Source of the DNA: Escherichia coli
GTDB lineage: Bacteria; Pseudomonadota; Gammaproteobacteria; Enterobacterales; Enterobacteriaceae
Assembly (NCBI RefSeq): GCF_041248615.1
Contig: NZ_CP158426.1
DNA length: 64,000 nucleotides
Strand: one strand, 5' to 3'
The position numbers and the translations under genes were made by a program. The notes below the pieces were generated by a model. The model was not told the origin of the DNA, searched no databases, and saw only the letters and a program-made list of their open reading frames with translations. This document shows, in pieces, positions 45,990-48,708 of this stretch. Every line of letters starts with the position of its first letter. Positions within the stretch are counted from its first letter, which is position 1.

Positions 45990-46430
45990 ATGGTCTTTGC
46001 AATGAGCAAATCTAATCTGATCGCGTTCCGCATCCCATCTGAATTGCAGGATGAGTTTAATCGGTCTGTTCTCGCTTCTGGAGGGGATAAAACCTCCTGG
46101 CTTGTTGATGCGATTCGCATGAAGCTGGGACAGCCGGAAAAGTCTATTGATTCACGAATGCTTGGGCTGGTGGAGCGCATGGAAAAAGCCGCAGCATCGC
46201 TTATTGCCGGAAAGCCGAACATCCCACCAAAGCCATATAACGAAACGGCAGTTATAAAGATCATTGCCGATACCATCCGACAGGGATTTGATAATGGGCG
46301 TGTGATAGCGGAACGGCTCAATGAAGCAGGCTACCAAACAAAAGCTGGTAAAGCGTGGGATAAAGACATTTACAGCGCGTGGAAGCGTCAGGGTAACAAT
46401 ATTAAAAGAATCAATACGCTGCTTCAGTAA
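45990..46430 (+). CDS. ribbon-helix-helix (Arc/Mnt/CopG-like) DNA-binding protein with C-terminal extension
   Basis: N-terminus (M)SKSNLIAFRIPSELQDEFNRSVLASGGDKTSWLVDAIRMKL has the RHH beta-alpha-alpha pattern; alternative ATG at 46002; the overlapping minus-strand ORF is judged a shadow. Confidence 0.5.
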   Translation: MVFAMSKSNLIAFRIPSELQDEFNRSVLASGGDKTSWLVDAIRMKLGQPEKSIDSRMLGLVERMEKAAASLIAGKPNIPPKPYNETAVIKIIADTIRQGFDNGRVIAERLNEAGYQTKAGKAWDKDIYSAWKRQGNNIKRINTLLQ

Positions 46431-46459
46431 TTGATCAGTGTATAAATGATATTTATCGC

Positions 46460-47437
46460 TCAATCGCTCCCTTTCCGCCCTTCAGCTACAGGGTCGTTGT
46501 CGGCGATAACAAAACCTAAGTCCTGAGAGAATCTCTCTCGTGGGAATCCTTTAGCAGGTAAACCCATTGAATCATATCCACATCCGGGAACATTTGGTTT
46601 AGAGTCAATAAGGTCTGCAATTTGCCGAAGCCATGTTGATCCCGGACCAAGTCGTTTAACTAAGTACCAGATAATACAGATCGCGCTAAAAATCCTCTCG
46701 CAACTCTCTGGATGGAGATTAAGTCCGTCAAAGTATTCATTATCCGGTACTGGAACTCGGGGATGCTTTCTATTCCATATTCTGGAATGGTGAGCGCAAC
46801 GATTCCTTATGAGATTAAGGCACTTCAACCATTTTGCAAATGTCTGCTTATTATCAATGCCAAAACGACGTATAATTTTCCCCTGCATATGACCATTAAG
46901 CATCGCATAATATTTAGACATCTGACCAAAATCCCAGGTCTCCACCGCCACCCAAAATGGAATCTCCTTGCCTTGGCTTCGATGCCATTCAATACAGTCA
47001 TCTCTGCTTTCGTCTAATTTTACTTTTTGCTTATACACCCAATGCTCGAAGGCAGATGAGAATTTTGGATTAATGTATTTTGATGACATGTAGGCAAGTG
47101 GATCATTGCGACCAACCTCATGCGCGATGACTGAACGAACATGAATCTCTATTCTTTCGATAGCATCAATCATCAAAAGACGCAGTTTTTTGTCAAAAAG
47201 ATATAGATCGTACGTCTTCTCGAAACTGGTACCAGCAAGAAATCGGTCTGTTCTGTACGAAAGACCTTTATCTGTTGTCGCAATAATTCTTGATGGGTAC
47301 CAAAAACCTGACAATCGATAATATCCAACCTGCGACAGCTTACGTATCGCACGATTTCGATCATTGATAATCATGCCACGTTCAAGTAGCAATCCTAGCA
47401 ATTCGTGATAGTCCTTATGAGGCTTTGCGGCAATCAT
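46460..47437 (-). CDS. Abi_2-family (AbiD/AbiF-like) abortive-infection protein
   Basis: Start at internal ATG (MIAAKPHKDYHELLGLLLERGMIINDRNRAIRKLSQVGYYRLSGFWYP…); conserved blocks YYRLSGFW and LIRNRCAHHSRIWNRK are the hallmark of the Abi_2 (PF07751) family as I recall it. Confidence 0.65.
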   Translation of the reverse strand: MIAAKPHKDYHELLGLLLERGMIINDRNRAIRKLSQVGYYRLSGFWYPSRIIATTDKGLSYRTDRFLAGTSFEKTYDLYLFDKKLRLLMIDAIERIEIHVRSVIAHEVGRNDPLAYMSSKYINPKFSSAFEHWVYKQKVKLDESRDDCIEWHRSQGKEIPFWVAVETWDFGQMSKYYAMLNGHMQGKIIRRFGIDNKQTFAKWLKCLNLIRNRCAHHSRIWNRKHPRVPVPDNEYFDGLNLHPESCERIFSAICIIWYLVKRLGPGSTWLRQIADLIDSKPNVPGCGYDSMGLPAKGFPRERFSQDLGFVIADNDPVAEGRKGSD

Positions 47438-47809
47438 AGTGGCGAAACAAAAGATAATAAAAGGCCCGACCGTGAAACTCACATGCCTGAAATCGGCGGC
47501 GGAGAAACAGAGGATCGGGCTCGGTTGCCTGTAACTCTATCCGAAGTTATCCACATGTCAATGCACAGTTACTTAGGAAACTAACATAGATACTATCATC
47601 ACTCACGAAAAACCACTATATGTGGTTTTTATTCATATTGTTATCCACTACAGGCTGTGTCAATAACTTTTACCTATTAATTGGGTAATTTCTACATTTT
47701 CCTATGCTGGCTAGTTTCTCTACTGAAAAGTTGGCACTCCTTAATCGCTTTTCGGTTAATACTATCGGTCTTCATATTGCCAGCAGCATACGCCATCCGA
47801 TAATTTCTA

Positions 47810-48200
47810 TGCTACGCGCGCGTACTTGTCGCAAAATATCAGGCAAAGGCCAGATTCAGAACGTCGTGATAACCACCAGCACAACATGAGATGTCATGTA
47901 ACGCGATTTATCACACCAGATACATGTGATTGGTGTACCCGCATAAAACATCGTCATAGCGCGTCCTGTGCGCATATACGCCGATAATCAACACATCACC
48001 ACCACTCTGTCTTATGTAGAGAACAGTTTTATGGTGCTCCCCGCCATCGTGTGCGTACTGGTCGGACGTAGTTGCAAAATTTTTTGCAACTGATACCCCT
48101 CGCGCGCGTACTGGTCACGAAATTGGTGTTTTGCTGTGGCAGTGATATCAGAAAAATCTTCCTGTTTCACATAAAGCGGATATGCGCGTACTGTAACGGC
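47810..48200. promoter_or_regulatory. repeat-rich divergent control region between the Abi-like gene and the secreted-protein gene
   Basis: Four copies of GCGYGTACTKGT (about 47817, 48050, 48103, 48184) and a 10-bp-arm inverted repeat AGTTGCAAAA-TT-TTTTGCAACT at 48070-48091; no credible ORF. Confidence 0.45.
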
Positions 48201-48307
48201 CCCATCAACTGGGAGCGGATTTGAAATCCCGACCCAAGCTATGTACCAAATGCCATGTCTTGGATATATGATGATTGCCATTCTAAACAACGCTAAAGGG
48301 AGGGTTG

Positions 48308-48708
48308 GTGTGAATCAATTGAAGCGATTGGTTGTCTCCGGTTTATTATTTGCTTCTTTTGGAGCGAACGCTGAATGCTGGATTATTGGTGATCTGAAAG
48401 GACAAGAAGCCTCAAGTTCAGATGGGTATAACTATAAGTTATCATCTATACCAGATACCTTTCATTTGGTAATAAGTAAAGAGAAGGCGGATCTTATCTT
48501 GGCAAAAGATGGTATAGGTGGAGGTATTGATTATTACCCGCTATCTCCGAATGCCATGATGGGAAGAAGCTATCGAGATGGTCAACTGACGCTTGTCACA
48601 TGGGCAATCTCAAATGACGGAAAAGTGATCCATACACGAACAATTAGTCGATCTGATATAGGCTCATTTACAGGCTCATTTGTCGGCAATGTTAAAGGCA
48701 AGTGTTAA
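48308..48708 (+). CDS. small secreted/periplasmic protein (candidate superinfection-exclusion factor)
   Basis: GTG start at 48308 preceded by AGGGAGG; signal peptide (M)NQLKRLVVSGLLFASFGANA, then a hydrophilic ~110-aa domain. Function is inferred from position only. Confidence 0.45.

Follow-up and report, generated by a model that had tools for sequence, protein, structure and literature searches.

The region described here, positions 45990 to 48708 of a 64,000-nt stretch of Escherichia coli DNA (contig NZ_CP158426.1; the whole stretch is called the window below, and positions are counted from its first letter), lies within an integrative island and contains three protein-coding genes. These are abi, which encodes an Abi family protein; a convergent gene for a protein that we call RHH-like, after the ribbon-helix-helix (RHH) fold once suggested for it; and, across the gap 47438–48309, a gene for a small secreted protein. 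A first-pass annotation had read the three as one defence or exclusion cluster in a P22-type genome. It had left out a further component, which we found ahead of the abi start codon, on the same strand and downstream of a sigma-70-like promoter: a conserved, structured leader RNA, the part that defines how AbiF systems work. Table 1 lists the features of the region and of the island; loci used for comparison are designated by L numbers.

Table 1. Features of the abi region and of the island that carries it
Feature	Position	Strand	Basis and remarks
abi, 325 aa, AbiD/AbiF-family HEPN RNase, predicted toxin	46460..47437	(−)	WP_021542399.1; RefSeq "Abi family protein", same coordinates
Conserved structured leader RNA, ~75 nt, predicted AbiF antitoxin and attenuator	47448..47532	(−)	Covariance models; covariation
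Sigma-70-like promoter of leader RNA and abi	47534..47561	(−)	Promoter scan, 10/12 matches
Bidirectional terminator-like hairpin, AAAAACCAC-TATAT-GTGGTTTTT	47608..47630	both	Terminator scan; upstream of abi promoter
RHH-like protein, 146 aa	45990..46430	(+)	Convergent with abi, 29-nt gap; flanks cargo slot
Noncoding island-backbone module, ~510 bp	~47806..48309/48315		Present in 547/5426 E. coli genomes
Five GCGCGTACTG-like repeats	47818, 47959, 48051, 48104, 48184	one strand	Irregular spacing
Perfect palindrome, GTTGCAAAA-TT-TTTTGCAAC	48071-48090		In backbone module
Small secreted protein, 132 aa	48310..48708	(+)	Sec signal peptide ending in ANA, followed by E
~129-aa alleles in sister islands	L002:10869-11258, L005:7523-7912, L006:7466-7855, L007:7501-7890		
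PerC-family regulator gene	45443..45730	(−)	RefSeq; phrog_994 at 4e-37; backbone gene, island end
Six exact TGAACCAAC 9-mers, three per strand	45767..45887	both	Between PerC-like and RHH-like genes
Twin cluster, six exact TGAACCAAC 9-mers, three per strand	54056-54166	both	Directly after TOPRIM/DUF927 primase gene
Integrative island	45443-63990		Between chromosomal dinD and yicC; RefSeq annotation and open reading frame lists

The abi product matches the Pfam Abi_2 model (PF07751) over its full length (E = 2.4e-52, model positions 2–184 of 184). It also matches AbiD in PADLOC (7.3e-58), the PHROG family phrog_2158, "abortive infection resistance protein" (1.8e-56), and, over residues 4–301, the Prevotellaceae AbiF of Protein Data Bank (PDB) entry 8VZ6 (E = 4e-36, 128 bits). 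The Abi_2 domain proposed in the first-pass annotation was thus borne out by the Pfam, PADLOC and 8VZ6 matches, and its view of abi as an AbiD/AbiF-type abortive-infection gene carried as mobile-element cargo is upheld by the Abi_2 profile and by the satellite context described below. The HEPN motif R-N-x3-H is intact (R211-N-R-C-A-H216) and aligns with the catalytic R210 and H215 of the Prevotellaceae protein, PbAbiF, mutation of which inactivates that toxin according to the account relayed in PMC12373285. R211, N212, A215, H216 and H217 are invariant across 27 homologues (alignment A1). In keeping with its homologues, Abi would be an RNase. At E ≤ 1e-10 we found 561 clusters of homologues; of 5426 complete E. 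coli genomes searched, 72 carry the exact module. A search of viral contigs with the 8VZ6 sequence, meant for a direct comparison with the PbAbiF locus, gave no matches, and we found no published work on this E. coli AbiF clade.

AbiF systems consist of a HEPN toxin and an upstream noncoding RNA (ncRNA) that acts as the antitoxin (PMC12373285, PMC12737573, PMC13064643), and because the ncRNA of the published systems is small and lies upstream of the toxin gene, we searched for such an RNA ahead of abi. The Rfam abiF motif, RF03085, gave no match at its gathering score in 20 homologous loci, and the leader was modelled from scratch because this motif did not match. Our sample comprised 80 loci with Abi homologues (33–68% identity) from species-representative genomes, and conservation upstream of the gene was visible in 66 loci. 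Folded whole, the 381-nt upstream region of the window was not more stable than shuffled sequences (z = −0.31); only comparative analysis revealed the 75-nt element.

The RNA opens with a single strand at its 5′ end (consensus CAAYNG; CAACCG in the window), followed by a GC-rich outer stem, P1, in which 47520–47513 pair with 47471–47464. Inside the stem are a conserved internal loop (consensus CCUCUG / UYAYG; CCUCUG / UCACG in the window) and a hairpin, P2, that varies in sequence and length among loci and has an extended arm in the window RNA that is specific to its clade. A U-rich tail (47463–47452) ends 11–15 nt ahead of the abi ATG at 47437, for which no Shine-Dalgarno sequence is evident. 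The minimum free energy fold of the window RNA alone reproduces the same helices.

This structure is supported by covariation. In a 44-sequence alignment (A2), from which the RNAalifold consensus was derived, 10 of the 16 consensus pairs show compensatory change, and the number rises to 12 of 16 in an alignment of 68 distinct sequences (A3). Cells of A2 that can pair amount to 93.7%, compared to 79.9% in shuffled alignments, none of 500 shuffles reached the observed value, and sliding the partners by 1–3 columns lowered it to 27–49%. In addition, A7, A8, G11, C20, C21, A60 and G62 of A2 are unpaired yet invariant, which suggests an RNA contacted by protein rather than a plain terminator.

A covariance model, R1, searched against 553 kb of sequence on both strands, returned 73 matches, every one on the strand of abi. 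Seventy-two of these lie immediately 5′ of the abi gene that defines the locus (72 of the 80 loci, one each), with about two dozen loci outside the seed among them, and the single match in the window is the leader RNA at 47448–47532. A second model, R2, built without any enterobacterial sequence and mostly from Pseudomonas and Desulfobacterota, likewise found only this interval in the window (E = 3.6e-9); it also detected the RNA at nine other enterobacterial loci and gave nothing in loci that lack abi. Every intact Abi_2 gene of L002, L003 and L098–L100 (E. coli and Serratia) is accompanied by the RNA, which is absent from abi-less islands and from loci with the RHH-like gene only. The RNA precedes abi homologues in Gamma-, Beta- and Deltaproteobacteria and in cyanobacteria, was also found in Cyanobium and Nitrospirae assemblies, and is not represented in Rfam 15.

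Two side observations concern the range of the model. The seventy-third R1 match is a second one in the Pseudomonas fluorescens locus L083 (2633–2704 and 5271–5342, on the same strand and 2.6 kb apart), which suggests two abi modules in tandem. Separately, the Pasteurellaceae and Neisseria loci L063, L068, L069, L070 and L075 have a visibly related, diverged upstream hairpin (for example, GGCGTAGCCCCTG...GCTACGTCC) that R1 does not score, and the RNA family is probably broader than R1 captures.

The promoter of the RNA and abi pairs a −35 element, TTGACA (47561–47556), with a −10 element, TAGAGT (47539–47534), across a 16-nt spacer, and its predicted transcription start falls at about 47526–47528. 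Among 71 homologous loci, 35 show the pattern TTGAY-N17-20-TAnnnT at a constant distance, and in 28 of those 35 the −10 element ends 5–6 nt ahead of the conserved CAA. The window and the Raoultella locus L009 are homologous in nucleotide sequence as far as 47681, a stretch that includes the hairpin at 47608–47630, which probably insulates the module from outside transcription.

In our judgment, the locus is probably a two-component, AbiF-type (type III-like) toxin-antitoxin and abortive-infection module, carried as cargo by a satellite of the EcCIMP1 family; by analogy with PbAbiF and the AbiF of Clostridioides difficile, Abi and its leader RNA would most likely form a type III toxin-antitoxin system. 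The sigma-70 promoter (47561–47534) would direct synthesis of a structured RNA of about 75 nt (~47528–47452), the GC-rich P1 and the U-tail of which may act as an intrinsic terminator right before the abi start codon, so that most transcripts would end as free small RNA and few would read through into abi. The Abi protein would be a HEPN RNase (R211-N-x3-H216), and the small RNA, by means of its conserved unpaired nucleotides, would bind the Abi dimer and block the active site, on the analogy of PbAbiF-AbiFr and AbiF-RCd22. If infection disturbed the supply or stability of the RNA, or supplied a trigger, free Abi could then cleave cellular RNA, and growth arrest and an aborted infection would follow. 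Judging from its homologues, the RNA would thus neutralize the toxin and the module would protect against phage; it would also double as an addiction system for the island.

Comparison with characterized systems shows where the analogy holds. PbAbiF-AbiFr (PDB 8VZ6; Zilberzwige-Tal et al., Cell 2025), as relayed in PMC12373285 and PMC12737573, shares full-length protein homology with aligned HEPN residues, as well as a single structured ncRNA just upstream on the same strand. The protein match is, however, distant, and the likeness of the two RNAs rests on position, not on sequence comparison; the system described here also differs in that the outer stem of its RNA doubles as a terminator-like hairpin by the start codon and in that it belongs to E. 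coli, where a phage-inducible chromosomal island (PICI) carries it. The AbiFCd-RCd22 pair of the C. difficile phi027 prophage (Saunier et al. 2025, PMC12373285) likewise combines an Abi_2 toxin with an upstream ncRNA that has its own sigma-A/sigma-70 promoter and a terminator with read-through into abi, on a phage-related mobile element. However, RCd22 has two copies of the RF03085 motif, whereas RF03085 fails to recognize the RNA described here, which is a single hairpin, and the C. difficile pair lies in a phage lysis module rather than in the cargo slot of a satellite.

The lactococcal AbiD, AbiD1 and AbiF proteins belong to the same Pfam and PADLOC family, and the sequence upstream of lactococcal AbiD/F is more conserved than the gene and required for function (PMC13064643); these systems differ in being plasmid-borne and Gram-positive, with known phage targets, and the parallel drawn with them does not extend to RNA sequence. 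ToxIN and AbiQ follow the logic predicted here, with an upstream RNA antitoxin, a terminator that sets the ratio of RNA to toxin, and abortive infection as the outcome, but ToxI and antiQ consist of tandem repeats that a non-HEPN endoribonuclease processes, whereas the present locus has one RNA copy and a HEPN protein. The tandem array typical of classical type III systems (ToxIN/AbiQ/CptIN) is absent from this locus, as Tandem Repeats Finder detected none in 47438–48300 and each abi gene has a single covariance-model match.

Several findings weigh against the toxin-antitoxin interpretation. The U-tail is broken by other bases (UUUUAUUAUCUUUUGUUU), which makes the strength of the terminator uncertain, and the window RNA taken as a single sequence is only mildly more stable than its shuffles (z = −1.68). 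RF03085 gave no match at E ≤ 10 either in the window (6-kb and 0.5-kb searches) or in the best consensus copy of the RNA (L021, a 131-nt slice), and because of this non-match, homology of the RNA to the characterized antitoxins is not established and the likeness is one of analogy. Moreover, the RHH-like gene is co-inherited with abi across four genera and may play some part. Finally, P1 and the U-tract stand directly ahead of a start codon with no evident Shine-Dalgarno sequence, as would be expected of a leader acting purely in cis, as an attenuator or translational control that keeps abi expression low while Abi itself is controlled otherwise, for instance by a phage trigger alone. The lack of an Rfam abiF match would suit such a leader too, and, in the account given in PMC13064643, translation of lactococcal AbiD1 is controlled by its leader together with a phage protein. 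Nevertheless, we regard a purely cis-acting leader as unlikely: the 5′ tail and the internal loop hold unpaired bases that are invariant from Pseudomonas to Desulfobacterales to E. coli, none of which termination needs, and the toxins of the two AbiF systems studied by experiment are both bound and neutralized by the upstream RNA, with the C. difficile RNA also attenuating in cis.

The toxin-antitoxin interpretation bears on a wider question, since AbiF has recently been proposed as the ancestor of Cas13 and only two systems (Prevotellaceae and C. difficile) have been studied experimentally. The locus offers an AbiF native to E. coli with a well-defined predicted cognate RNA, and the RNA family, now with some 70 covarying members and a covariance model that works, brings the specificity of toxin and RNA, attenuation and triggering by phage within reach of direct tests in the best genetic host. 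A more tentative proposal, to which we give distinctly less credence, is that the leader represents a widespread, uncatalogued class of AbiF antitoxin in which one hairpin combines three functions, those of a promoter-proximal small RNA, an intrinsic terminator and a toxin inhibitor. P2, which varies freely, might then be proto-spacer-like on the proposed path from AbiF to Cas13, and the Enterobacterales module might dock repeatedly beside an RHH-like gene that marks a general slot for defence cargo (AbiF or ShosTA) on satellites and prophages.

The island that carries the module is at least 19 kb long and runs beyond the end of the window (the span of the element is noted as 44800–63990). Its minus-strand genes encode an integrase, an AlpA-like helix-turn-helix (HTH) protein, an AntA/AntB antirepressor, an ash-family protein and a 919-aa TOPRIM/DUF927 primase, followed on the same strand by homologues of P22 gp14, gp7, gp20 and gp16, the Abi region and, last, the PerC-family gene. 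RefSeq annotation, open reading frames and a PHROG scan showed no capsid, tail or lysis genes among the island genes, and megablast of the Abi region against 50,697 phage records gave zero matches. In comparison, window positions 52137–61395 are 97.8% identical in nucleotide sequence, over 9.3 kb, to EcCIMP1, a characterized PICI of E. coli MP1 that is mobilized by the P22-like phage Kapi1 and whose PerC-like gene has been characterized (PMC11773190). Gene order is the same, and the two islands share identical accessions (WP_001018524.1 and WP_000181940.1).

Judged by this identity and by gene content, the element is a PICI (a phage satellite) of the EcCIMP1 family with P22-like ejection-protein genes, not a P22 prophage. 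The AlpA-like HTH, antirepressor, ash, primase, DUF2824 and ejection-protein genes fall within the 9.3-kb match, and the PerC-like gene is terminal in both islands. The islands differ in their integrase and integration site (dinD/yicC here, tRNA-Thr near proA in EcCIMP1), in the gp16-like allele and the small gene after it, and in that a short HTH gene stands alone in EcCIMP1 where the window island has the RHH-like gene and abi. The gp16-like ejection protein has 701 aa here (48771–50876), compared to a 906-aa "lytic transglycosylase domain" protein in EcCIMP1 (L101:12598–15318), and EcCIMP1 homology resumes only at 52137, inside the gp20-like gene. Sister islands are located near yagU/vat and beside yicG. 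The P22-type context assumed in the first-pass annotation is therefore restricted to the homologues of gp14, gp7, gp20 and gp16, and its argument from the genes that follow gene 16 in P22 does not apply directly to a PICI of the EcCIMP1 type; the earlier reading, in which an RHH-regulated cluster belonged to a P22 prophage, is corrected at the level of annotation.

The RHH-like gene had been taken for an RHH regulator convergent with abi. The convergence stands, whereas the fold was not confirmed by Pfam, AlphaFold2 or Foldseek. No RHH family in Pfam matched the protein, which gave only weak HTH_62 and Recombinase matches, the recombinase-HTH-like ones coming from its C-terminal domain; NCBIfam returned nothing; and phrog_30270, a family with no assigned function, matched weakly (3.3e-4, residues 5–49). 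In the AlphaFold2 model, the N-terminus, possibly beta-alpha-alpha, has a predicted local distance difference test (pLDDT) score of 50–60, and a helical C-terminal domain (residues 81–146) scores above 90; Foldseek found no match in the PDB better than E = 0.2. The protein has 370 clusters of homologues, one of which is labelled "Arc-like DNA binding domain protein" in its source, and the family is common in Enterobacterales prophages and islands, near the element end in the loci examined.

The association of this gene with abi is close in several genera: the convergent neighbour is Abi_2 in E. coli (29-nt gap), Raoultella (51 nt), Providencia (4-nt overlap) and Serratia (27 nt). Its neighbours vary elsewhere. 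In a Klebsiella pneumoniae locus (L093), an RHH homologue (4001–4432) lies beside a complete ShosTA system (4434–5980; ShosT 1.6e-48, ShosA 2.1e-101), in a position equivalent to that of abi, which suggests a shared cargo-docking site; in Salmonella the gene stands beside unrelated open reading frames, and E. coli L006 has it with no abi. Conversely, no RHH homologue stands within 3 kb of abi in the remaining 77 loci of the genome scan, the majority of which have the RNA. Because its neighbours vary and these 77 abi loci lack it, we read the RHH-like gene as a conserved flank of the cargo slot, not as a universal partner of Abi.

One could instead regard the RHH-like protein as a dedicated Abi partner, either a transcriptional regulator or a protein antitoxin, in a unit of RNA, Abi and RHH-like protein. 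The tight convergent spacing in the four genera speaks for such a unit, as does an association that spans two Abi subclades, and convergent transcription could give rise to antisense interference. Nucleotide homology between the window and Raoultella L009 also runs unbroken at 67% identity from 47681, which lies upstream of the abi promoter, as far as the RHH promoter at 45940, and for that reason a regulatory link within the E. coli/Raoultella subclade is possible. Yet the RNA tracks abi and not the RHH-like gene, whose fold is unconfirmed and which occurs without abi or with other cargo as described above, and a dedicated partnership seems to us improbable. As a separate observation, overlapping palindromes (TATAACA-G-TGTTATA and ACAGT-GGTAT-ACTGT) lie at 45940–45975, just upstream of the RHH-like start, and are candidate autoregulation operators; the stretch is conserved at the nucleotide level in Raoultella L009.

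The cargo identified in the slot flanked by the RHH-like gene is AbiF in several elements and ShosTA in the Klebsiella element. EcCIMP1-type satellites thus carry exchangeable cargo beside this gene, which extends the idea of defence hotspots to another PICI family. The defence hotspots that Rousset et al. (2022, PMC9122126) described in P4-like satellites and P2-like phages similarly have a fixed position in the satellite, conserved flanks and alternative cargo, but here the satellite family and the flanking genes are different, and the slot is a candidate hotspot.

The gap between abi and the secreted-protein gene had been described as an 800-bp repeat-rich control region. It is indeed repeat-rich, but it is composite rather than a single control region. 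The part from 47438 to ~47745–47806, with the leader RNA, promoter and hairpin (47608–47630), travels with abi, whereas the remainder is a backbone module found mostly without it: only 126 of the 547 genomes with the module also carry abi-side sequence, and in L005–L007 it stands beside different cargo. The module also holds the Shine-Dalgarno sequence and start region of the downstream small gene. We read it as noncoding because sister islands show 1-nt indels and, in L003, a 53-bp deletion exactly between two repeat copies, and because its repeats fall in different reading frames; conceptual translations of the module gave no PHROG match. A 92-aa minus-strand open reading frame (48012–48290) and the other frames of the gap were rejected on the same grounds, the differing repeat frames and the indels, and had no match in PHROGs, PADLOC or NCBIfam.

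With at most one mismatch, GCGCGTACTG has 12 matches in the window, 5 of which lie within 47818–48193 (376 bp), compared to ~3.4 expected in the whole 64 kb. We considered these repeats as an array of Abi antitoxins and rejected that reading because they lie in the backbone, which exists without abi. The role of the repeats and of the palindrome could be regulatory or related to packaging. At the boundary of the two parts of the gap, 34–46 nt of 47760–47803 are 85–91% identical to the 5′ end of terS of ES18-type Salmonella and Enterobacter phages (E = 2e-3 to 5e-3) and, in the ES18 frame, read AYRMAYAAGNMK versus AYRTAYAADKMK. At the protein level, neither tblastn with ES18 TerS nor PHROG scans of the conceptual peptide gave a match, and the stretch could be a terS relic, a mimic of a packaging site or a chance match.

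The signal-peptide protein predicted beyond the gap was confirmed, with its likely start moved from 48241 to a GTG at 48310 behind the Shine-Dalgarno sequence GGGAGG. Conserved cysteines stand near both termini of the mature protein, which has about 30 clusters of small homologues and matches phrog_2651 (1.3e-22), a family with no assigned function; PADLOC gave no match. AlphaFold2 predicts an all-beta, antiparallel beta-barrel (pLDDT 93), for which the PDB neighbours are only weak matches to generic eight-stranded, calycin- or NHBA-like folds with template modelling (TM) scores of 0.3–0.5, and with TM ≤ 0.5 the fold was set aside as a lead to function. In most sister islands, an unrelated hydrophobic protein of ~129 aa, which looks like a multi-pass membrane protein, begins from the same start (Table 1), and homology among islands breaks two codons past the shared Shine-Dalgarno sequence and GTG. 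By this comparison of islands, the position after the gp16-like gene is a second, independent variable slot, and a role of the secreted protein in exclusion at the envelope is no more than conceivable.

The three genes do all follow the gp16-like gene, and both alleles of the slot after it encode envelope proteins, but the grouping of Abi, the RHH-like regulator and the secreted protein into one defence or superinfection-exclusion cluster, as the immunity region of a P22-type prophage, is very hard to credit for a PICI with no capsid, tail or lysis genes, in which the three genes vary independently among sister islands and the secreted protein has neither a PADLOC match nor a functional lead from its PHROG family or fold; the cluster is unsupported because its parts have independent distributions.

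A last feature of the island is the 9-mer TGAACCAAC, of which the window contains 12 exact copies, compared to 0.56 expected, all in the two clusters of Table 1. Their layout resembles the ori/crr iteron arrangement of P4-type replicons, and the clusters are probably a replication cis-element of the island (ori and a crr-like site) and not a control element of Abi.

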